Shown here: one piece after another, positions 6,760-63,808 of the stretch | Layout: every line of letters begins with the position of its first letter | How positions within the stretch are numbered: the first letter of the stretch is position 1 | Assembly: GCA_016182605.1 (NCBI GenBank) | Contig: JACPGE010000060.1 | Location: 9,807-73,806 of the forward strand | Length of the DNA: 64,000 nucleotides | Source of the DNA: Candidatus Hydrogenedentota bacterium | GTDB lineage: Bacteria; Hydrogenedentota; Hydrogenedentia; Hydrogenedentales; JAEUWI01 | Reading direction: 5' to 3' | Notes under the pieces: model-generated | Told to the model about the DNA's origin: nothing | Database searches by the model: none | What the model saw: only the letters and a program-made list of their open reading frames with translations | Made by a program: the position numbers and the translations under genes

Positions 6760-7458
6760 ATGATTACCCTGCGCAAATCCAATGAACGCGGCGGCGCCGA
6801 CCACGGTTGGCTGAAAACACGCCACACCTTCTCCTTCTCCACCTACTACGATCCCGCGCACATGGGGTTCCGTGCCCTGCGCGTCATGAACGAGGACTGG
6901 GTCGCGCCGAGCCAGGGTTTTGGAAAGCATCCCCACGACAACATGGAGATCCTCACCTACGTGCTCGAAGGCGCACTGAAGCACCAGGACAGCATGGGCA
7001 ATGGCGAGGTGGTGCACGCGGGCGAACTCCAGCGCATGAGCGCCGGCACCGGCATACACCATAGTGAGTTCAACGCCTCGCAGGAGGACCCCGTGCGCCT
7101 CTATCAGATCTGGCTGCTGCCCGGCCAGCGGGGCCTCGAACCGGGCTACGAACAGAAAGCCTTCAGCCCGGAAGACAAGAAAGGCAGGCTGCGCCTCGTC
7201 GCTTCACCCGCCGGAGAAGACGGCGCCCTGACCATTCATCAGGACGTCCGTATCTACCTCGCGGGACTGACCGCGGGAGAAAGCCTTGCGCACACGCTCC
7301 AGCCCGGCCGCCACGCCTGGGTGCAGGTCATCTCTGGCGCGGCGAGCGTAAACGGTCAGGCCCTGAAAGCCGGGGACGGCGCCGCGATTTCAGACGAAAC
7401 CACGCTGACGCTTGCGGGCCGCACCGACGCCGAGATCATGCTCTTTGACCTAGCCTGA
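6760..7458 (+). CDS. yhhW: Pirin-family protein (quercetin 2,3-dioxygenase YhhW-like)
   Basis: [84 protein letters not shown] is near-collinear with E. coli YhhW ([66 protein letters not shown]). Strong RBS AAGGAG 8 nt upstream. Confidence 0.9.
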   Translation: [232 protein letters not shown]

Positions 7459-7544
7459 TGCCGCCCCGCTTAGAACGGCGGACCAGGAGAAGTCCAACAA
7501 GATCGGTTTTGAGCACCAAGGGCACTATTCTGAACGGCGCTAAC

Positions 7545-7700
7545 ATGTTGCAGTCTCACTCCAATCACGCCGCTCGGCGGGCAACGGGCTACCATTTTGG
7601 CACGCCCAAACAGGCCTTCGCTCGCCGGGCAGCCTGCCACCATTTAGACACGCCACCCAAGTAGGCCTTCGCTCGCCGAGCGTAGGCATTCCGCGTCGAA
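7545..7700. repeat. Partial inverted copy of the interspersed repeat unit (module carrying 'aggccttcgctcgccg' twice)
   Basis: ctcactccaatcacgccgctcggcg...cccaagtaggccttcgctcgccgagcgtaggcattcc matches the reverse complement of 8455..8535 and the left part of 54790..54850. Confidence 0.7.
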
Positions 7701-8143
7701 GTACCTCGTCCCGCACCCCTCTACACACGGCCACACTTCATCACAAAATCCAGATCAATCCGGCTTTCGTAGCTCCCAATTTCAATTGGGAGTTCGAATC
7801 CCAAACCTCTGCGCGCTTACGTCGACGCATTCACGCACACACCCATTGTCATCTCGAACGCAGTGAGAGATCTCCCAAGGGGACTGTACCCGCCGGAAGG
7901 CAATAGGCCTACCCGGCGGAAAGATCTTCCACCGGCGGGGACTGTACCCGGGCCCCAATCACGCACACCCCGCAACCCCAACCACCCTGCTATCCCGAAC
8001 CCTTCCCTGTCATCTCGAACGCAGTGAGAGATCTCCCCGGGGAGCGCCATGCGCCGCGACGTGGACCACAAAAAGCTGGGGCGGTCTTATTTTCCAGGAA
8101 TGTCCGGTCCCTTGGGGCTCAGACATTCCTTATAGTAACCACG

Positions 8144-8213
8144 TTGGTTATCCACAGCCGACAGCAAGGCCACCTCGGTTGGCCTTCGTCGGCTGTCGGG
8201 TGTGGATAACCAA
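8144..8213. repeat. Long imperfect hairpin (about 30-bp stem, 8-nt loop)
   Basis: ttggttatccacagccgacagcaaggcc acctcggt tggccttcgtcggctgtcgggtgtggataaccaa. The outer 13 bp are perfectly complementary. Confidence 0.6.
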
Positions 8214-8368
8214 CCGGCTGGGGATGCAGTATTTCTGGCGTAACCCAAACTCGGTTTGGGCGGCGACGGCTCCTTCCGCGCCCCGCGCATCCCTCCAGCC
8301 GCAAGGACCGGCGCCCGATCCCATTCCCGCGTGTTCGACACCCGCGTCTCCGCCCGTTGATTCTCCAA

Positions 8369-8760
8369 GGAAAATTCGGGGCAGTAACCATTTTTTGCAG
8401 GATTCTCGCCCGGTTGACGGGGTGTAAGCTGGTACCTTGACGAGGAATGCCTATGCTCGGCGAGCGAAGGCCTACTTGGGTGGTGTCTAACAGGTAGCAC
8501 GCTGCTCGCCGAGCGGCGTGATTGGAGTGAGACCGCAAGTGTTAGCCCGCATATTTCACCACTTCAAGGTTTCTTGGCAACGAGTTCGACTTGGAAGATG
8601 GTGAAAAATGCTCAGCGTGGCGATGGTGCTGGCGTTCACCGGGCAGGCTAAATCACGGGCTGTTTGTTATTCCCAAGCTTGAAGTTGGGACAACGATATG
8701 TATGAATGGGTGTTACGACTACATCGTTTGGAGCCCGTGATTTATCCGAGTACACGGTCC
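8369..8760. repeat. Composite copy of the interspersed repeat family (minus orientation relative to the 54790 copy). It carries module R1, the 'gtgaaatatgcggg' module, the 50-bp core and its hairpin partner
   Basis: 8369..8540 is about 85% identical to 9249..9425 (direct). 8546..8662 is the reverse complement of 54905..55082. 8741..8759 (gagcccgtgatttatccg) pairs with 8644..8662 (ggctaaatcacgggctg) to form a 12-bp stem around a ~75-nt loop. Confidence 0.75.
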
Positions 8761-8876
8761 ATGCACCGTATTTCGACACAGGTACAACGCCGGCCGGGCA
8801 GGTGTGGCACGGACGCGGCTGCCAGCGATCCTCCACACTCACCGCTCCCACCCGTTTCGAAACAACATCCCTCATT

Positions 8877-8925
8877 CCCATCCGTGTGCATCGGTGTTCA
8901 TTCGTGGTTTGATTCCCTCAAGAAC
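8877..8925. repeat. Short direct repeat (copy 1 of 2; copy 2 at 9138..9185)
   Basis: cccatccgtgtgcatcggtgt.cat.cgtggtttgattccc is shared by both loci. Copy 1 is followed by an inverted repeat gttcattcgtggt...accacgaatgaac. Confidence 0.6.
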
Positions 8926-9248
8926 CAGGCCATCAATCAGACCACGAATGAACGCCAATACACGCGAATAAGACACAAGAACACGCCGGACCCCATGCCC
9001 ATCCTTCCCATTCCTCTTTCAGTGTGCTCCCTGTGTTCCGTGGTCGGCGAAGCGCTATCCTTAGTCCCCGCCCCGCCCCCGCGTTTCGCAAAGTCCATCC
9101 CGTCCATCAGGTCCATGTAGCCAGTCCACACGCCCCTCCCCATCCGTGTGCATCGGTGTCCATCCGTGGTTGATTCCCCCCAGTACCAACGTTTCGCCCG
9201 CCCTTCAACTCCTTTGCGACTTTGCGGCTTTGCGTGAGACAACTTTCC

Positions 9249-9425
9249 GGGAGAAATTGTGGACAGTAACCATTTTTGCAGGATTCTCTCCTGTTTGACG
9301 GGGTGTAGACAGGCGCTTCGACGTGGAATGCCTGCGCTCGCCGAGAGCGAAGGTCTACATTGGTGGCGTGCTTCATGGCAGCGCGCTGTTCGCCGAGCGG
9401 CGTAACCGGGGCGAGGCGGGAAAAG
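9249..9425. repeat. Second direct copy of repeat module R1
   Basis: gggagaaattgtggacagtaaccatttttgcaggattctc...gacggggtgta...ggaatgcct.cgctcg.cgag.gcgaagg.ctac aligns to 8369..8540. Confidence 0.7.
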
Positions 9426-9573
9426 TAAGCGCCATTCGGAGCGGTCCCCGGCAAAATCGATTGCACCATTTCAACCTTCGCAGACTTTTTCCGCTCTGGC
9501 CTTTGATCGGTGGACCGGGAGAAGCTACAGTAGTGTTGGAATCCTAAAGGCATTGCCAGGAGGCCGACACCCC

Positions 9574-10212
9574 ATGTATCTCTTCGCCGGAACCGCCATT
9601 CTTGCTGCACTGAGCCTGCTGGTCATCGTCAGCCTGATCTGGCGCTGGGCCTCCACGCGCCAGGCCCTGCCGTGCCCCTCCCAGTTCTCCTGGATGCTGG
9701 AAAACCCCCTCATGAACCAGATGGCGGGCGCCACCCGGCTCTTCGACTTCCTCGATCTGCGGCCCGGCATGACGCTTCTCGATGTGGGCTGTGGTCCGGG
9801 CCGCATGACGGTGCCCGGCGCGCTCCGCGTTGGCACGGAAGGCCGCGTTCTCGCGCTCGACATGCAGGAAGCCATGATCCGGAAGGCCCAGAACCGCGCA
9901 CAGCAGGCTGGCCTCACCAACATCGAGTTCATTCTGAAAGGCATGGGTGAGGGGGCGCTCCCAGCGGCATGCTGTGATCGCGCCATCCTGGTTACCGTCC
10001 TCGGCGAAATCCCCGATCGGGCCGCCGCCCTCCGTGGCATCCACACCGCCCTCCGCCCCGGCGGCCGCCTGTGCATTGCGGAGATCCTTCTCGATCCCCA
10101 CTACCAGCCCCGCGCCCGCGTCGAAGCCCTCGCACGCGAGACGGGCTTCACGCTCGGTCCGTATCAGGGCGGCTGGATCTCCTACACACAGATTCTGGAG
10201 AAGCCGGAATAG
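9574..10212 (+). CDS. Class I SAM-dependent methyltransferase with an N-terminal TM anchor
   Basis: RBS CAGGAGG 8 nt before the ATG at 9574. TM helix LFAGTAILAALSLLVIVSLIW. Motif I LLDVGCGPGRMT and the post-I acidic residue (LALDMQEAM). Motif IV-like DRAILVTVL. Confidence 0.75.
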   Translation: MYLFAGTAILAALSLLVIVSLIWRWASTRQALPCPSQFSWMLENPLMNQMAGATRLFDFLDLRPGMTLLDVGCGPGRMTVPGALRVGTEGRVLALDMQEAMIRKAQNRAQQAGLTNIEFILKGMGEGALPAACCDRAILVTVLGEIPDRAAALRGIHTALRPGGRLCIAEILLDPHYQPRARVEALARETGFTLGPYQGGWISYTQILEKPE

Positions 10213-10258: not shown

Positions 10259-11512
10259 TCATGTGCCTTTATCACGAAGTAGACAGTTCTTGACCGAATA
10301 CCAGTCGGCTTGCTCAATGCCTTTGACGAAGGGAATCACTTTCTCGTCGCCAATGAGCCGTTCCCATTTCCTTCTTATGGCACCACGTGCAAGCTCTTCC
10401 ATACGTGAAGCATTGGGATCAACGACAGCCAGTCGATGAGATTCTGAAGAGCATAGCCAATCCAAGAGACGGGCGTTTATGACTTTGTCACCAAAACTGT
10501 ATCCGCATACAACTAGGTAGTCTGTCGTCAGCAGGTTCTGGTGAAACATGACTTGAAGTTCTGCGAAGATTCCATAGTTGTACTCCAGGAGCTTGTTGAA
10601 AGTTCCCATTAACATCAGTGGTCCTCTTACATGCCAGAGTTCGTGCCTTTCACCAAGTTCGTTCCTGGCGTGATAAGGATCGCGGTCCAATGATTTTCCA
10701 ACGCATTGGCTTTGCCATACGGGGCCTGGCGATGGGAACGAGTACCAGTCGACAGAGCCATGCAGTTTAAATATACGAACCTTTGCATTTGAGTGCGACA
10801 GGTCATTCCGGTTCCAGTGCAATACGTTTCCTCTGTGATCGCAGAAACCGTCCGAATACGGAACTCCGAAAGATCGAAAGAGTTCTTCAAGGATGGTGTC
10901 GTGATTCAAAGTGTAAATGTCGATCTTTGAGAGGGATCCATCGCGAGAGGCGGAGAGTAGGAACGACAATGCCCAAAGTCGGTTCGGAGTCTTCCACAAT
11001 TCGTTCTCCACGACATCGCGGATATAGGTGCATACCTCATTCAACAGTGGCGTGAGTTCCCAATTTTCATGCAGTTCACCAGGTTTATGCTGCAGAATTT
11101 TGAGAACAGCCGGCATCTTAAGCAGCTTTTCGTACAACGCCTGAACTGCGGGGTTCTCGTACTCGAAGTGATCGCTGTCTGAAAGCTGACGTGCACAAAA
11201 ATAGAGGTCTTCGTAATTCGTCTGATGCCGCCCAAAGGTCTTGTAGAACTCTGCTTCATTGCTCAGCGAGTGTCGGCCACAGTGAAAAAATCCGTCTACT
11301 TCGTCCTTTAGTATTTGGAGCAGCGCAGTGACTCGAGGAACATATACTTCCTGAGACTCAAAATCTTCGCGAACTCTATCATCAAATTCGTAGTTGCCGC
11401 AGGTGTGCCGTCGGTAGTTCACACCAGCCAGGACTGTGCTCGTCAGGCTCGCCGTTGAAGGCTTTCCAACGGGAATAGATGTTCCCGCGCCGCAGACGAT
11501 GCCAACTCTCAT
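10259..11512 (-). CDS. SIR2-like (sirtuin superfamily, SIR2_2-type) NAD-binding/NADase-like protein
   Basis: Nucleotide-binding loop VGIVCGAGTSIPVGKPS (compare sirtuin GAGIS.E.GIP). Asn motif IYTLNHDTILEE (compare TQNID). Catalytic-His motif KLHGSVDWY (compare sirtuin LHGS). Second Rossmann strand VVCGYSFGDKVIN. The gene GC (~48%) is well below its neighbours (~63%). Its start codon overlaps the stop of the upstream ATPase gene (ATGA). Confidence 0.75.
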   Translation of the reverse strand: MRVGIVCGAGTSIPVGKPSTASLTSTVLAGVNYRRHTCGNYEFDDRVREDFESQEVYVPRVTALLQILKDEVDGFFHCGRHSLSNEAEFYKTFGRHQTNYEDLYFCARQLSDSDHFEYENPAVQALYEKLLKMPAVLKILQHKPGELHENWELTPLLNEVCTYIRDVVENELWKTPNRLWALSFLLSASRDGSLSKIDIYTLNHDTILEELFRSFGVPYSDGFCDHRGNVLHWNRNDLSHSNAKVRIFKLHGSVDWYSFPSPGPVWQSQCVGKSLDRDPYHARNELGERHELWHVRGPLMLMGTFNKLLEYNYGIFAELQVMFHQNLLTTDYLVVCGYSFGDKVINARLLDWLCSSESHRLAVVDPNASRMEELARGAIRRKWERLIGDEKVIPFVKGIEQADWYSVKNCLLRDKGT

Positions 11513-12708
11513 GTGGTCGTTCCCAAAGTATCGTTTTTTCTGTTGGGTCGTACGCTAGAATCCATTGAGTAATTCAGGCCCGTCAATTCCCCACCCACGG
11601 GGACCGTGCTCACCTTGTCCCCCAGCGGATAGGCCTTGTCCCCCGGATAAACAACCCATAAATGCTCCAGTTCCAAATCCTCCAGCGCACTGCGCATCGA
11701 ACGCGTGATCCGCGGCGCGTCGGCGTACTTCACCTCCACGGCCCAGTTCTTGCCCCGATCCTGCCAGAAGAGATCAACCTCGGCGCCGGAGTGCGTGGCC
11801 CAGAAGTAGAGTTCTTCCTTCCGTTTGCCAAGCGCCCGCGTTACGGTCTCCAACGCAAAGCCTTCCCAGGACGCGCCGAGCTTGTTGTGGGTCGCGAGAT
11901 CTCCCGCTGTGCGCGCCGAGAGCAGGGTGTGAAAGAGCCCGGAATCGCGGAAGTAGATCTTGGGCCGTTTGACAAGGCGCTTCCCCACGTTCGCATGCCA
12001 CGGCTGTAACAGCCGGATCATAAAGGTCCCTTCGAGGACGTCCAGGTAGCGCCGGACCGTTGCGTCGGACACGCCGAAGGAACGGGCGAACTCGGAGTAG
12101 TTCATCAACTGGCCATGATAGTGACAGAGCATGGTCCAGAAGCGCCGCAACGCGGCCGCGGGAATATCAATGCCGAGTTGCGGGATGTCACGCTCCAGGA
12201 AGGTGGCCACATACTGCTCGCGCCACAAGTGGCTCGCCGCATCGCTGTCCGCTGTGTATGCGCGCGGCAGCCCGCCCCGCAACCAGAGGGACCGCCAATG
12301 TTCCGTGCCCACGTCTTCGAGCCGGAATCCCCCCAATTCATGGTAGGCAATGCGCCCCGCCAACGACTCTGCCGATTGCCGGATAAGATCCCGCGATGCA
12401 CTGCCCAAGATCAGGTAGCGCTGTCCAGGGCGGGTGTCGACGAGGTGGCGCAACAGGGGGAAGAGGTTGGGAGCCCGCTGTATTTCGTCGATGACGATCA
12501 GACCCGAAAGGGGCTCCAGAGCCAGTTGCGCCTGCTCCATCATGACCGCATCCCGAGGATTTTCCAGATCGAAGAAGTGCGCCGCCGGAAAAGCCCGTGC
12601 AAGACACGTTTTCCCGGCCTGACGCGGCCCCAAGAGAGCAGTCACGGGAAAGTGTTCCAATAAGGCACGAATGGCCTCTGTATCGGCATGCCGGGCTATC
12701 ATAGCCAC
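11509..12708 (-). CDS. P-loop ATPase fused to a PD-(D/E)xK nuclease-like C-terminal domain (AAA_14/DUF4143-like by motif recall)
   Basis: Walker A LLGPRQAGKTCLA and Walker B LIVIDEIQRAPNLF. The C-terminal region GAEVDLFWQDRGKNWAVEVKYADAP has a D...E.K arrangement typical of the restriction-endonuclease fold. 399 aa. Translationally coupled to the SIR2-like gene. Confidence 0.7.
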   Translation of the reverse strand: MAMIARHADTEAIRALLEHFPVTALLGPRQAGKTCLARAFPAAHFFDLENPRDAVMMEQAQLALEPLSGLIVIDEIQRAPNLFPLLRHLVDTRPGQRYLILGSASRDLIRQSAESLAGRIAYHELGGFRLEDVGTEHWRSLWLRGGLPRAYTADSDAASHLWREQYVATFLERDIPQLGIDIPAAALRRFWTMLCHYHGQLMNYSEFARSFGVSDATVRRYLDVLEGTFMIRLLQPWHANVGKRLVKRPKIYFRDSGLFHTLLSARTAGDLATHNKLGASWEGFALETVTRALGKRKEELYFWATHSGAEVDLFWQDRGKNWAVEVKYADAPRITRSMRSALEDLELEHLWVVYPGDKAYPLGDKVSTVPVGGELTGLNYSMDSSVRPNRKNDTLGTTT

Positions 12709-12780: not shown

Positions 12781-13197
12781 TCAGCGGTGCCGAACCATAT
12801 AATCCATGGCCGCGTTCGCAAGTAGGCCGGAACGGGTCTGGCCATGGGACACTGCCCATTGGTCGACCGCTTCGAGTACGTATTCCGGAAGCGTGATGTT
12901 TATCCGTTGGGCACGGCCGGTCGGGAGTTCAATGCCGATTTGAGCAAGAACCACCCGGTGCCCTTCAGACTCGTAGTCGGCGATCAACTCCAGCAGCCCG
13001 GCTTCGTCGCCGCCCGGGGGAATGGGATCGCCGTCGTCCACCATGGATTGCACATGCAGGGAAAGGGCCTCGGCGGCACGGCGTTGTGCATCCTCGAGCG
13101 TAGGAGCCACCGTGACGCATCCGGGAAAATCGGGAAACGCGACATCGATCTGAACGGAACCCAAGCCTGCAAAGATAGCCTGGTAATATCGAATCAC
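12781..13197 (-). CDS. hicB: HicB-family antitoxin (type II TA)
   Basis: 138 aa. N-terminal HicB/UPF0150-like fold (MIRYYQAIFAGLGSVQIDVAFPDFPGCVTVAPTLEDAQRRAAEAL). C-terminal ribbon-helix-helix-like region (INITLPEYVLEAVDQWAVSHGQTRSGLLANAAM). Sits immediately downstream of hicA. Confidence 0.75.
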   Translation of the reverse strand: MIRYYQAIFAGLGSVQIDVAFPDFPGCVTVAPTLEDAQRRAAEALSLHVQSMVDDGDPIPPGGDEAGLLELIADYESEGHRVVLAQIGIELPTGRAQRINITLPEYVLEAVDQWAVSHGQTRSGLLANAAMDYMVRHR

Positions 13198-33591: not shown

Positions 33592-34779
33592 TTGGCTTGG
33601 GATCTAAGAAATCAAAAAGCCAACTCTTGGATAGAGGTGAAAGCCGCCGTGCCGCAGACTAAGATTGTATCCGGCGCCGTTCACGGCCTTCGAAGATTCG
33701 GAAGCTTTTGGAAGGCATGTGCCGCACTCTTGCTGGGATCCGTGCTGGCCTTGCTCCTTGTCCTCGCGATCGACTTCGCATGCGGATTCATCTATCAGCG
33801 CAAACCGCCCGTTTTCGCTGAAAAGTCGGTTTCCGGAAGGCCGGTGAGTCTGCCAGACGGCAATCTGGGCTTCCACCTGGTTCCCAACGCGTCTGAACTC
33901 GTGAATCGGACTGCCGGCGCTCAAACCATATACAGCGTTACCTACACGACGGACGCCTGTGGCCGGCGCGTCGTGCCAGCGGCGGCGCATGGCGGCCAAA
34001 GCCAATTCCTGATCTTTTTCGGCTGCTCGTTTACATTTGGGGCTGGGCTGGGAGACAACGATACGCTCCCCAATCAAGTTGCGGCGCTTGCACCGGACTA
34101 CCATGTCTATAACTATGCGTGCGGCGGCTACGGCCCCGCTCAGATGCTCGCCATACTGGAATCTGGCGTCCTCCCCAAAGAGATTCAGGAACCGGCTGGA
34201 ATCGCAGTATATGTACTGCGCCCGGGTCACGTAGCGCGGGTGGTCGGTTCCATGCGGACGACGGCATCGTGGGCACGGCATTTCCCCTATTACGCCATCG
34301 AGGACGATGGCGCCCTGTCGCGGCGGGGAAATTTCGATGAGGACCGCCGGTTTACGAATTGGTATTACAACCTGGCGGGTAAAAGCGGCATCTTGAATTT
34401 GCTCTCCCTCGACTTGCCGCTTTGGTATCGCGAATCCCATTACGCACTCACAGCGCGAGTTCTCATTGAGTCGCGGGACCTCTTCTTGAAGTCATTCAAG
34501 GACGGAAAATTTTATGTCGTTTTTTATCCCGCATGGGACGACTACCGGCTCGTGTATACGCGCATTCTTCCGTATCTCGAAAAAGCAGGCGTCACGGTCT
34601 TGAACTATAACCAGTTGCTCGAGCCAGAACACGACGCCTATTTTCTGCATCCCGTGTATGACCGGCACCCCTCCGCAGTTGCCCATAAACAAGTCGCCGC
34701 GCAACTCGCTCAAGACCTTGACGTGATTCCCCCGCAACAAAGCGAATCGAACGGGTCCGTGACGCCAGACAGCCCGTGA
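33592..34779 (+). CDS. Membrane-anchored SGNH/GDSL-like hydrolase or acyltransferase-accessory-like protein
   Basis: N-terminal TM helix ACAALLLGSVLALLLVLAI. Motif QFLIFFGCSFTFGAG resembles the GDS(L) block. 395 aa. GC lower than the neighbouring genes. Confidence 0.45.
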   Translation: MAWDLRNQKANSWIEVKAAVPQTKIVSGAVHGLRRFGSFWKACAALLLGSVLALLLVLAIDFACGFIYQRKPPVFAEKSVSGRPVSLPDGNLGFHLVPNASELVNRTAGAQTIYSVTYTTDACGRRVVPAAAHGGQSQFLIFFGCSFTFGAGLGDNDTLPNQVAALAPDYHVYNYACGGYGPAQMLAILESGVLPKEIQEPAGIAVYVLRPGHVARVVGSMRTTASWARHFPYYAIEDDGALSRRGNFDEDRRFTNWYYNLAGKSGILNLLSLDLPLWYRESHYALTARVLIESRDLFLKSFKDGKFYVVFYPAWDDYRLVYTRILPYLEKAGVTVLNYNQLLEPEHDAYFLHPVYDRHPSAVAHKQVAAQLAQDLDVIPPQQSESNGSVTPDSP

Positions 34780-34822
34780 TTTAACCTGCCCGCCGAACGC
34801 CAGCACCATCCTCACGCCGAGT
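34770..34822. repeat. Partial copy of the 50-bp repeat core (family 'cagcccgtgatttaacctgcccggtgaacgccagcaccatcgtcacgctga')
   Basis: cagcccgtgatttaacctgcccgccgaacgccagcaccatcctcacgccgag. Same orientation and ~90% identity to 55030..55082. Confidence 0.7.
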
Positions 34823-34857: not shown

Positions 34858-34960
34858 CCGGATCATCTCCGCCTGACGCACTTCCTGGCGCCCGGAATCG
34901 GCCCAGAAGGGTATTCGTGCGGATAGATAAAGCGCCGGATACTGGGATGGAAGCGCCGCC
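34858..34960 (-). pseudogene. Decayed duplicate of the 3' terminus of pncB
   Basis: About 85% nucleotide identity to 37305..37408 (the 3' end of pncB). The minus-strand translation ...YPALYLSARIPFWADSGRQEVRQAEMIRG parallels the PncB C-terminus ...YPHEYPSGLDSGLHEARQAEMIRMKRGK but lacks the stop codon. Confidence 0.7.
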
Positions 34961-37286: not shown

Positions 37287-38756
37287 TCATTTCCCCCGCT
37301 TCATCCGGATCATCTCCGCCTGACGCGCCTCGTGGAGCCCGGAATCGAGCCCGGAAGGATATTCATGGGGATAGATAAAACGCCGGATGCTCGGATGAAA
37401 CCGGCGCAAGTCATCGAAGGCGTGCTGGCGGATCTCGTGGATGCTCGGGGGCTCGTACACAAGGTGGCCCTGCTCGAAGATGGGCAAGAGTAAGTCAAAG
37501 CTCTTCGCATCCGGGGCTATGGTCTTTGTGCGGAAAGGGTTCATCGGATCCACCAGCGTCGTCGGCTCCGCTATCCCGTTACGCTCATCATAGATGCAGT
37601 CGCCCAGATATGTATCGCCGCGCCGGAACCGCCGGACGTTCAAAATGCCAGGAATGGAGTTCTTCGCCGCCTGCTCCGAAAGTTTGACCTTGTTTACCCA
37701 CTCCCCGGCGTCGTCCCGCACCGCCGCCAATTTGTAGACCGCGCCCAGCGCCGGCTGATCATACGCCGTGATCAATTTCGTCCCCACGCCCCACACCGCG
37801 ATGGTCGCGCCCTGATCCTTGAGCGAGCTAATAATGTGTTCGTCCAAGTCGTTCGAAGCAATGATACGCGTGTCCTGAAACCCCGCTTCATCCAGCAACT
37901 TGCGCGCTTCGATCGAGAGATAGGCCAAGTCGCCCGAATCCAGCCGGATACCGGCAAACTGATACCCCTTCTCGCGCAGCCGCTGCCCCGCCGCGATCGC
38001 GTTGCGCACCCCTCCCAGCGTGTCGTACGTGTCCACCAGAAACACGCAGTTGTTCGGCATGACCTCCGCATACGTCTCAAACGCCTGCAACTCGTCCGGA
38101 AAGAGCATCACCCAGGAATGGGCGTGCGTGCCGCGAACAGGAATACCGTAAATACGGCCCGCCAATACATTCGAGGTCGCAAAGCACCCGCCAATATACG
38201 CCGCACGGCTCGCCGCCAGGCCGCCATCGATTCCCTGTGCCCGGCGCAGCCCGAATTCCAGCACGGGATCCCCCTGGGCCGCATGGCAGACCCGCGCCGC
38301 CTTCGTGGCCACCAGGCTCTGGAAACCCACGATCGTGAGCAAGGCCGTCTCCAAAAGTTGCCCCTGAAGTATCGGACCCTGGATCCGCAACAATGGCTCC
38401 TGTGGAAAGACCGCGGCGCCTTCCGGAACCCCCTTCACACTGCACGAAAAGCGCAGGGCAAGCAAATACTCCAGAAAATCCTGCGAAAAAAGGGGCGCGC
38501 CATCGTTGCCGTTCAGCGTCCCCAGATAGGTCACATCGTCTTCGTCGAAGTGAAAATCCTGCAAATACTCGATCACCGTGCCCAGGCCGCACGCAAGCGT
38601 ATAGCCCGAGTTGAACGGCGGATGCCGGAACGCCAAATTGAAGATCGCCTCGCGCTCCGCCAGACCGGACTTCCAATAGGAATACGCCATCGTAATCTGG
38701 TAAAGATCGGTCAGCAGGGCCAATGAAGGCCGGTAGATCTCTCGCAATGCACTCAT
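37287..38756 (-). CDS. pncB: Nicotinate phosphoribosyltransferase
   Basis: MSALREIYRPSLALLTDLYQITMAYSYWKSG...GTHAHSWVM...IRLDSGDLAYLS. Collinear with the NAPRTase family. 489 aa. Confidence 0.9.
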   Translation of the reverse strand: MSALREIYRPSLALLTDLYQITMAYSYWKSGLAEREAIFNLAFRHPPFNSGYTLACGLGTVIEYLQDFHFDEDDVTYLGTLNGNDGAPLFSQDFLEYLLALRFSCSVKGVPEGAAVFPQEPLLRIQGPILQGQLLETALLTIVGFQSLVATKAARVCHAAQGDPVLEFGLRRAQGIDGGLAASRAAYIGGCFATSNVLAGRIYGIPVRGTHAHSWVMLFPDELQAFETYAEVMPNNCVFLVDTYDTLGGVRNAIAAGQRLREKGYQFAGIRLDSGDLAYLSIEARKLLDEAGFQDTRIIASNDLDEHIISSLKDQGATIAVWGVGTKLITAYDQPALGAVYKLAAVRDDAGEWVNKVKLSEQAAKNSIPGILNVRRFRRGDTYLGDCIYDERNGIAEPTTLVDPMNPFRTKTIAPDAKSFDLLLPIFEQGHLVYEPPSIHEIRQHAFDDLRRFHPSIRRFIYPHEYPSGLDSGLHEARQAEMIRMKRGK

Positions 38757-52388: not shown

Positions 52389-52528
52389 TCCCGGATAAAT
52401 CACGGGCTCCACGTATTCGTGTCATAACCCCTTTTCTCGTCTGTCATTGCCACAACATGCACGGCGGCATCGCCAGACAGCCCGCGCTTTAGCCTGCCCG
52501 GTGAACGCCAGCGCCATCGTCACGCTGA
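52389..52528. repeat. Interspersed repeat copy (hairpin-partner module + loop + 50-bp core). Left member of a near-identical inverted pair with 63490..63603
   Basis: 52389..52460 differs from the reverse complement of 63531..63603 at a single position (tattcgtg vs tatttgtg). A further ~40 bp is ~70% identical. 52478..52528 is a core copy (cagcccgcgctttagcctgcccggtgaacgccagcgccatcgtcacgctga). Confidence 0.8.
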
Positions 52529-54671: not shown

Positions 54672-54789
54672 GCAGCGCAAAACCTGAAAAGCCACGCCAA
54701 AACAAAGTCGCCAACAGCAAGATCGCTGCAATGGAAAACGTGGCGCCCACAGCTCAACGAGCCCGGCAACGCAAAGACCTTCTACGTCC

Positions 54790-55085
54790 CCGTCGGCCTT
54801 GCCGGAAGTAGGCCTTCGCTCGCCGGGCGCAGGTATGGGCGCTTTCCGTGCGGAGCCCAAGTGCGGGCGTGGAGTATGCCCTCGGGCAGGCAGTGGAGCG
54901 CGTTGCCCACAAGTTTTGAAGTGGTGAAATATGCGGGTTAGCCCGGATAAATCACGGGCTCCAGCCGACGGAGCCATAACTCTCACTCACACTTGCTGTT
55001 GCCCAAACCTTGGATCCGGAAACAACAGACAGCCCGTGATTTAACCTGCCCGGTGAACGCCAGCACCATCGTCACGCTGAGCAGT
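54790..55085. repeat. Most complete copy of the interspersed repeat family (about 295 bp; plus orientation)
   Basis: Modules in order: aggccttcgctcgccgggc ; ttgaagtggtgaaatatgcgggttagc ; cccggataaatcacgggctcc ; ~70-nt loop ; cagcccgtgatttaacctgcccggtgaacgccagcaccatcgtcacgctgagca. The stem aaatcacgggct/agcccgtgattt forms a 12-bp hairpin. Confidence 0.8.
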
Positions 55086-55172
55086 CAAAAATGCGCATAT
55101 TGATAATAATGGCTTATATTGACGGAGGGGGGCTTGGTTTGATGATGCCTGGTGGGTTCCGCGTGACGGGTC

Positions 55173-55201
55173 TTGACAGGGCATTCGCAGGGTGGCACAA
55201 T
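55173..55201 (+). promoter_or_regulatory. Sigma-70-like promoter candidate for the TetR-icmF cluster
   Basis: TTGACA-17 nt-CACAAT (or CAATAT at 19 nt). Followed by a palindromic gagcgctc core that could serve as the TetR operator. Confidence 0.3.
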
Positions 55202-55242
55202 ATTGAGCGAGCGCTCAGTCGGAACACGCTAAAGGTCTGCCC

Positions 55243-63300: not shown

Positions 63301-63489
63301 GTCAATCCCTCTCTGGAGCGAAAATGTGGTAGATTTAATCAGTTGACACTGCGGAAACTATTCTCACCCGTACAGATGGGAAAAGTCAACGGTGCGAACC
63401 CGCCTATTTCGCCATTTTGAGCGGTTCTGAGGAGCAGATCTTCCCGGAAAGCGGTGAAATATTCGGGGCGCGAGTATGGCTTGGCCCCT

Positions 63490-63603
63490 GCCGGAGCGAG
63501 CCAATCGCGGGCTGTCCGGCAATTCCACTGTGCATGTTGTGGCAATGACAGACGAGAAAAGGGGTTATGACACAAATACGTGGAGCCCGTGATTTATCCG
63601 GGC
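63490..63603. repeat. Interspersed repeat copy. Right (inverted) member of the near-identical pair with 52389..52500
   Basis: The reverse complement of 63531..63603 equals 52389..52460 with 1 mismatch. Confidence 0.8.
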
Positions 63604-63808
63604 CAGTCTGAACCGTATGAGCCCCGATTTGATTCGCGGGGCATGGGCAACCTATAGTTACTGCGAATGTGTCAACAAAAAACGTTGACCGATTCAGGCA
63701 ATATTCTTATACTGCTACAATGGACGCTGGGGAGCGTAGTTCGCCGAGGCCACTTGGGGCTGTCGATGCCGGGCTTTCACGGCGGGAGTAGAGGCCGGGA
63801 AGAGGATC

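Follow-up and report, generated by a model that had tools for sequence, protein, structure and literature searches.

The repetitive extragenic palindromes (REPs) known as GTAG-REPs have stems of 6-13 bp, very short loops and an unpaired GTAG, and are arranged as head-head or tail-tail dimers, which are frequently heterodimers (Di Nocera et al. 2013, PMC3733652). Degenerate GTAG tags are allowed in the literature on GTAG-REPs, and in same-direction gene pairs REPs are located downstream of the upstream open reading frame (ORF); in GTAG-REP clusters, the dimers are reiterated along with flanking DNA (PMC3733652). Large mosaic intergenic regions in which REPs are interleaved with other repeat families have also been described (PMC3733652). 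Systems of this kind include REPs with REP-associated tyrosine transposases (RAYTs), REP doublets forming hairpins (REPINs) and bacterial interspersed mosaic elements (BIMEs) (Bertels & Rainey 2011, PMC3116915; Nunvar et al. 2010, PMC2817692). Here, we compare with these systems a 2.1-kb repeat field (positions 7459-9573) in a 64-kb stretch of the genome of a Candidatus Hydrogenedentota bacterium (contig JACPGE010000060.1; the whole stretch is referred to as the window), located between a pirin gene and an S-adenosylmethionine (SAM)-methyltransferase gene. With a probability of roughly 0.7, this tract is a mosaic intergenic field in which several short non-coding hairpin repeat families have accumulated and have been locally duplicated. 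The mosaic field is lineage-specific and represents ordinary bacterial DNA of the selfish or structural kind, new for a little-studied phylum.

Repeats were mapped by a repeat search, by comparing the tract to the window with blastn and by aligning copies in MAFFT. A family of ~175 nt, designated family A, was found in three copies in the field, two in direct orientation and one inverted:

8369-8546, plus strand: copy A1, composed of an 80-nt leader, REP1 on the minus strand, a spacer of 18 nt, REP2 on the plus strand and a tail
9249-9430, plus strand: copy A2, with the leader and the REP dimer, ending 144 nt upstream of the methyltransferase start codon
7539-7719, minus strand: copy A3, an inverted partial copy without the 5' leader, with three REP units

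A1 (8372-8546) and A2 (9254-9430) are 76% identical over 178 nt (E = 2e-30) and A3 is 80-84% identical to A1, which bears out the direct ~175-bp pair and the partial inverted copy reported in a preliminary description of this DNA. The differences between A1 and A2 are of all types (36 transitions and 22 transversions). A3 contains an internal 48-51-nt duplication and therefore represents a trimer of REP units. Within the window, the family A leader is confined to the field.

The core of family A consists of two imperfect palindromes of ~27 nt, which are inverted relative to each other and have the common centre GCTCGCCGAGC. REP1 has the sequence GTAGGCCTTCGCTCGCCGAGCRTAGGC and REP2 the sequence GTAGCACGCTGCTCGCCGAGCGGCGTG, and the order on the plus strand of both A1 and A2 is body, CTAC, a spacer of 18-19 nt, GTAG and body, such that the GTAG ends face each other. 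Eight REP units were identified in the 64 kb, seven in the field and one at 54808-54836, all of them in gaps between Pfam-supported genes:

7564..7592, minus strand: R1, REP2 type, GTAGCCCGTTGCCCGCCGAGCGGCGTGAT
7610..7640, plus strand: R2, REP1 type, tag degenerated to ACAG
7661..7689, plus strand: R3, REP1 type, GTAGGCCTTCGCTCGCCGAGCGTAGGC, 11-pair stem with one mismatch
8447..8475, minus strand: R4, REP1 type, in A1
8494..8522, plus strand: R5, REP2 type, GTAGCACGCTGCTCGCCGAGCGGCGTG, in A1
9328..9358, minus strand: R6, REP1 type with a 2-nt insertion, in A2
9378..9406, plus strand: R7, REP2 type, tag degenerated to GCAG, in A2
54808..54836, plus strand: the only REP unit outside the field, REP1 type, one mismatch to R3

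The stems of these units have 8-11 pairs with at most one mismatch. Five of the eight carry an exact GTAG tag, and the remaining three have ACAG, GCAG or a shifted tag. In the alignment of the eight units, the 10-pair hairpin was paired in 85% of cells, compared to 31-40% when the 3' partner was slid, and three stem pairs differ on both sides between REP1 (GCCT...AGGC) and REP2 (CACG...CGTG). The paired cells and these two-sided changes indicate that the hairpin is conserved, and not the sequence alone. Moreover, the 22-mer GTAGGCCTTCGCTCGCCGAGCG was found three times (with up to 3 mismatches; 0.01 expected) and the palindromic core 17 times (4.4 expected). A GTAG tag together with a hairpin with a stem of at least 8 pairs was found at 8 distinct loci in the window, 4 of which are inside the field, which makes up 3% of the sequence. 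Judged by sequence, the family A core corresponds to GTAG-tagged REPs in a tail-to-tail heterodimer arrangement, similar to REPINs and BIMEs. One tagged hairpin in the field is solitary:

7769..7792, plus strand: solitary GTAG-tagged perfect hairpin GTAGCTCCCAATTTCAATTGGGAG, followed by the T-loop-like sequence GTTCGAATCC

The sequence GTTCGAATCC after the hairpin (7769-7805 in all) resembles the T-loop of a transfer RNA (tRNA); at normal thresholds ARAGORN predicted no tRNA here.

The likeness of the tract to GTAG-REPs, REPINs and BIMEs lies in imperfect palindromes of ~27 nt (REP palindromes being 20-40 bp) with 10-11-bp stems and a minimal loop, most of which have an unpaired GTAG at one end. 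As in GTAG-REPs, the units form inverted pairs with the GTAG tails pointing inward (the 'TT' dimer) and with different stems in the two partners (a heterodimer); they are also extragenic and downstream of an ORF, and within the cluster the dimers recur along with DNA that flanks them. In the terms of PMC3733652, A1 and A2 each represent a tail-to-tail heterodimer that was duplicated along with ~80 nt of its 5' flank, and A3 represents a trimer. The tract differs from GTAG-REPs, however, in that only one REP unit of its type was found outside the locus in 64 kb and no RAYT gene was found in the window; in addition, its spacer (18-19 nt) lies toward the lower limit of published lengths, and Hydrogenedentota are not among the phyla named in the abstract of PMC3733652. 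The Neisseria intergenic mosaic elements and other large intergenic mosaics of this type (PMC3733652) are comparable as kilobase-long, gene-free mosaics of unrelated short repeats in mixed orientations, but the tract families are unrelated to them in sequence and the tract showed no association with a phage or an integrase.

Two further modules, C and B, follow A1 in the field, and copies of these modules recur in four further intergenic gaps of the window:

8541..8612, plus strand: module C, a ~70-nt hairpin, the arms of which (GCATATTTCACCA) bear the motif CCCGSATWWHTCAC
8609..8750, plus strand: module B, a conserved 5' tail of 40 nt with a hairpin of ~110 nt
54892..55083, minus strand: B copy (54942-55083), then a half copy of C (54892-54944), in a 571-bp gap between permease and TetR genes
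52390..52528, minus strand: B copy in an intergenic gap
63392..63605, plus strand: C+B composite (C 63392-63467, B 63467-63605), in the order and spacing of 8541-8750
34759..34822, minus strand: truncated B (5' tail and left arm only), which provides the stop codon of ORF 33592-34779

In total, B was found at five loci and C at three in the 64 kb, all in gaps between genes and in either orientation relative to the neighboring genes. The B hairpin has the arms TAAATCACGGGCT and AGCCCGTGATTTA (8646-8661 and 8732-8747; 16 nt, 94% complementary), which locates the 50-bp core and hairpin partner of the preliminary description, and its 3' end bears the terminal motif of C. This motif, CCCGSATWWHTCAC, gave 7 matches (0.35 expected); the matches are inverted and mark the ends of C as well as the 3' end of B. 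B has a 13-bp long-range stem because its internal left arm repeats the TAAATCACGGGCT part of the CCCGSATWWHTCAC motif. Beside the CCCG end, the flanks of B and C often read CTAA, CTAG or TTAG. On these sequence features, B and C look like small elements of one superfamily of inverted-repeat miniature transposable elements (MITEs), bounded by terminal inverted repeats (TIRs).

Correia/NEMIS, ERIC and RUP elements are examples of bacterial MITEs or long palindromic intergenic repeats. Similar to these elements, B and C are non-coding, have 70-140 nt with inverted terminal motifs and long hairpins, and are dispersed in intergenic gaps, where they sometimes abut or provide stop codons. In contrast to such elements (for reviews, see PMC3184786 and PMC10969869), B has a conserved 40-nt tail outside the inverted repeat, and neither module has a demonstrable target-site duplication or a known parent insertion sequence with matching ends. 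The gap adjoining the truncated B copy also contains a 103-nt segment (34858-34959) that is 85% identical to 37305-37407, the 3' end of a nicotinate phosphoribosyltransferase gene (37287-38756, minus strand); this segment looks like a gene-fragment scar from recombination. The omega-RNA of a TnpB/IscB system was considered for B and rejected, as no TnpB or IscB was found in the window and the ORFs of ~400 amino acids (aa) beside B represent a membrane protein or antisense shadows.

Module B also provides the best case for another explanation, namely that one or more of the modules (B being the most plausible, either alone or together with C) are lineage-specific structured small RNA genes and that the field is an RNA-gene cluster. 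The 13-bp long-range stem of B is conserved, and its interior differs between two subtypes yet still forms a local hairpin. A few pairs of the stem are changed on both sides, many G-U pairs occur in one orientation, the fold z-scores on the two strands are -2.4 and -3.9, and the loop contains conserved sequence islands. However, the stem arms coincide with the terminal motif shared with C, such that the hairpin is explained at the DNA level, and covariation has no statistical power with only four full B copies. B is furthermore found in both orientations relative to its neighbors, overlaps ORF ends and occurs in a truncated form. No Rfam match was obtained over B even at E <= 10; across the window, Rfam 15 gave no match at the gathering score, and over the tract the matches at E <= 10 were sub-threshold only, representing generic hairpins matched to eukaryotic microRNA models (best match 33.9 bits, with a gathering score of 104). 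Promoter-like and terminator-like sites in the tract were not above shuffled expectation; candidate promoter and terminator sites in the family A leader were rejected in particular, as the matches were at chance and no sigma-54 or sigma-70 spacing was seen by eye. For family A, single-strand folds of whole units vary between copies and are not much better than those of shuffles (z = -2.2 and -0.8), which is evidence against a ~175-nt structured RNA. At normal thresholds, ARAGORN found no tRNA or transfer-messenger RNA (tmRNA) in the tract; pseudo-tRNA and permuted tmRNA calls made at lowered thresholds were implausible and were disregarded. Overall, small RNA genes appear rather unlikely, and the structured non-coding RNA that had initially been offered as an alternative did not receive positive support.

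The reading as a mosaic of repeats has to be weighed, in addition, against a tract that is simply a decayed gene, insertion sequence or prophage fragment in which the repeats are incidental. The gap is unusually long for a gene-dense genome, and an apparent gene-fragment scar is found elsewhere in the window, beside the truncated B (34858-34959, matching 37305-37407). On the other hand, the 10 longest stop-to-stop frames of the tract had no Pfam match at E <= 1, and neither six-frame concatenates of 8369-8760 nor the concatenated remaining tract frames of at least 35 aa had a match at E <= 10 among 5.8 billion proteins (searches run without a positive control). Moreover, recognizable, palindromic modules cover ~50% of 7459-9573. 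A decayed gene is thus improbable, and the initial view of 7.5-9.5 kb as a gene-free tract of repeats, rather than a degraded pseudogene, holds.

Several further hairpins and duplications are found only at this locus:

7847..7881, plus strand: 30-nt exact-core repeat, copy 1, TGTCATCTCGAACGCAGTGAGAGATCTCCC
8008..8042, plus strand: 30-nt exact-core repeat, copy 2, core TGTCATCTCGAACGCAGTGAGAGATCTCCC
8143..8214, no strand: DnaA-box hairpin of 72 nt, with 23-nt arms that are 96% complementary (DNA fold z = -8.1)
8873..8973, no strand: 48-nt-repeat hairpin, formed by the repeat 8873-8929 and an inverted copy 8933-8973, with the 10-nt periodicity CATCCGTGTG
9136..9191, plus strand: 48-nt repeat, solo copy (third copy)

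The two copies of the 48-nt repeat at 8877-8927 and 9139-9188 are 88% identical, and the repeat forms a 90-nt hairpin with its inverted copy at 8933-8973 (DNA fold z = -5.7). In the 30-nt core TGTCATCTCGAACGCAGTGAGAGATCTCCC (7847-7876 and 8008-8037), ATCTC and GAGAT make up a stem of 5 bp that encloses an 11-nt loop; we take this core to resemble, with a compensated stem, the widespread GTCATCCTGAGCGAAGCGAAGGATCTC-type motif that gives rise to spurious '...HPERSEGS...' peptides in many phyla. Periodicities of 9-10 nt, CATCCGTGTG and GTCCATCAC (~2.7-2.9 copies each; 8879-8906, 9093-9116 and 9140-9168), which look iteron-like, were also observed inside or beside the 48-nt repeat. No extra copies were detected when the window and the retrieved related loci were searched with an nhmmer profile for each module.

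Every repeat that the preliminary description had listed was recovered at approximately the coordinates given there, including the 48-bp direct repeat, to which an inverted copy is added here, and the 70-bp long hairpin, which corresponds to 8143-8214. Its statement that the modules recur elsewhere in the window applies to B, C and one REP unit; it does not apply to the family A leader or to the 48-nt and 30-nt repeats, all of which are confined to the field within the window. Its reading of the field as clustered MITE-like or REP-like elements agrees with the GTAG palindrome dimers, which carry structure-preserving changes, and with the dispersed terminal motif shared by B and C. Likewise, the tract is not an array of short palindromic repeats that are clustered and regularly interspaced (CRISPR), as had been stated at the outset: the repeats are diverged (72-88% identical), belong to several unrelated families, occur in both orientations and are irregularly spaced. 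Two other types of element were considered and rejected. A template repeat/variable repeat pair of a diversity-generating retroelement does not account for A1 and A2, as their changes are of all types, no reverse transcriptase was found in the window and neither copy is in a gene, and for integron attC sites no GTTRRRY/RYYYAAC ends were readable and no integrase was found in the window.

The only two perfect TTATCCACA 9-mers (the DnaA-box consensus) in the window are the arms of the very stable 8143-8214 hairpin, which raises the idea of a regulatory role at the DNA level centred on this hairpin, for example in DnaA titration or as an origin-like cruciform. However, the two boxes represent one palindromic event, and relaxed DnaA boxes were not enriched (44 found, 42 expected). 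The GC skew is unchanged across 7459-9573, and no dnaA or dnaN was found in the window. An oriC or DnaA-box cluster was rejected on the same grounds. The pair of boxes, as a single palindromic occurrence, is compatible with chance, and a role based on DnaA is most improbable.

Several observations weigh against the interpretation of the tract as a mosaic of mobile repeat families. High-copy dispersal (typically >100 copies) is a criterion for REPs; here, 8 units were found in 64 kb and seven of these are in one locus, such that this hallmark is not shown. Three of the eight REP units lack an exact GTAG, and no matching direct-repeat pair representing a target-site duplication was found around any single B or C copy. 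REP systems have a cognate RAYT/TnpA-REP gene (a HUH Y1 transposase) in the genome, usually with REPs on its flanks; Pfam searches did not identify a transposase, RAYT, integrase, reverse transcriptase or TnpB among the ~50 genes of the window. Copies of the repeats were also not found in public collections: a 19-mer of B gave only chance matches within coding sequences in the Genome Taxonomy Database (GTDB) species representatives and in Joint Genome Institute (JGI) metagenomes and no match in IMG/VR, a 25-mer of family A was not found in JGI metagenomes, and the tract as a whole had no blastn match in plasmid or phage collections. A look-up of the T2SSE ATPase, aimed at sequence outside the window, likewise returned no record. 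Mobility is consequently deduced from architecture only, and the source species is evidently not represented in the collections searched. Finally, the central 1.46 kb of the tract (7679-9135) is not spanned by the independent short-read contigs.

The closest pirin homologue, on a contig from a distant relative (ENA ERZ27256989, contig k141_1295370; designated L005; 74% nucleotide identity), is followed by a different downstream gene after a 570-bp gap. This contig shares with the tract only a C-like inverted-repeat pair, CCCGCATTTCTCACCAGC (18 nt, 94% complementary, at 1517-1704 of L005), which brackets a 152-nt stretch downstream of the pirin homologue, directly adjoins the stop codon of the following gene and resembles the termini of module C.

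The assembly itself bears on how far the arrangement can be relied upon. Independent short-read contigs of the same organism (run SRR12113422) match the sequence at 100% up to position 7678 and again from position 9136, which gives independent support to the whole of A2 and to A3 as far as 7678. The contig stop at 7678 is inside a REP palindrome and the restart at 9136 is at a repeat copy; these breaks fit a repeat-rich region, and no exact repeat of at least 31 nt within the window accounts for them. The field or its internal arrangement could instead be partly an assembly artefact of collapsed or mis-joined repeats, given that the source is a metagenome-assembled genome (MAG), that contigs assembled from the same short-read run end on either side of the central part and that the GC skew flips at a further repeat cluster (54.8 kb). 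An artefact nevertheless seems decidedly improbable, since the flanks match independent contigs at 100%, the copies are 72-88% identical, unlike the identical copies of a collapse or duplication artefact, and the GC skew is steady across the tract.

From position 1 to ~54.7 kb, the plus strand has a negative GC skew whichever way the genes are oriented; the skew turns positive (~54,750-54,900) exactly in the 571-bp gap (54672-55242) that holds copies of B and C as well as the REP1 unit outside the field. This polarity is origin-like. Neither dnaA or dnaN nor a DnaA-box cluster was found near the flip, which could mark an origin, a repeat-associated inversion breakpoint or a chimeric join in the MAG. 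A broader proposal, which we regard as doubtful, is a new REP/RAYT-type system and a new TIR-MITE family (with the termini CCCGSATWWHTCAC) in Hydrogenedentota, or B and C as a new lineage-specific structured RNA family; on this proposal, the coincidence of B, C and a REP unit with the ~54.8-kb skew change would point to repeats that mediate inversions or mark replication architecture.

Under the favored explanation of a mosaic field of accumulated hairpin repeats, the REP units would be, or would have been, spread by a HUH tyrosine transposase of the RAYT/TnpA-REP type encoded elsewhere in the genome, and B and C may be MITE-like derivatives mobilized in trans by some transposase. The field could have grown by local duplication of REP dimers with flanking DNA, as in the putative duplication from A1 to A2 and the 51-nt duplication in A3, and by insertion of C and B next to A1. 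A sequence-specific cellular function of the tract DNA is improbable; generic REP-type effects are the most that may be expected, such as those of a hairpin barrier or of a stabilizer of messenger RNA 3' ends downstream of the pirin gene.

The field is set in a gene-dense window of ~61% G+C, in which roughly 50 genes were scanned with Pfam, among them housekeeping genes such as flagellar rod and ring genes, mutL, miaA, a methyl-accepting chemotaxis protein (MCP) gene, methylmalonyl-CoA mutase and others. On a crude gene map, the field is the longest non-coding gap of the window, most other gaps being <400 bp. The field and its flanking genes are as follows:

6760-7458, plus strand: pirin gene, upstream flank of the field; the encoded protein shows 100% identity to a MAG protein in NCBI, located on a 139-kb contig
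7459..9573, no strand: non-coding field as a whole, between the pirin and SAM-methyltransferase genes
9574-10212, plus strand: SAM-methyltransferase gene, downstream flank; the start at 9574 is taken from an independent gene call

Beyond the methyltransferase gene, a SIR2-like-domain protein (10259-11512, minus strand) is followed directly by an AAA_14/DUF4143 ATPase (11509-12708, minus strand), and a HicB-like antitoxin (12781-13197) is encoded near this pair. The region 10259-12708, together with its HicB-like neighbor, may be a predicted defence or toxin-antitoxin islet adjoining the repeat field.

Repeat-rich intergenic mosaics are well known in bacteria, and no concept is changed by this locus. 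The repeat field is offered here as a reason for the short-read assembly breaks in this organism, and the repeat sequences are useful for spotting assembly errors and rearrangements and for avoiding spurious ORF annotation in related MAGs. REP1 and REP2 (GTAGGCCTTCGCTCGCCGAGC-type units) and the B and C termini CCCGSATWWHTCAC are usable as tags for the cognate transposases. For the phylum, the field indicates that GTAG-tagged REP dimers and MITE-like hairpins are also found in an uncultured Hydrogenedentes lineage.

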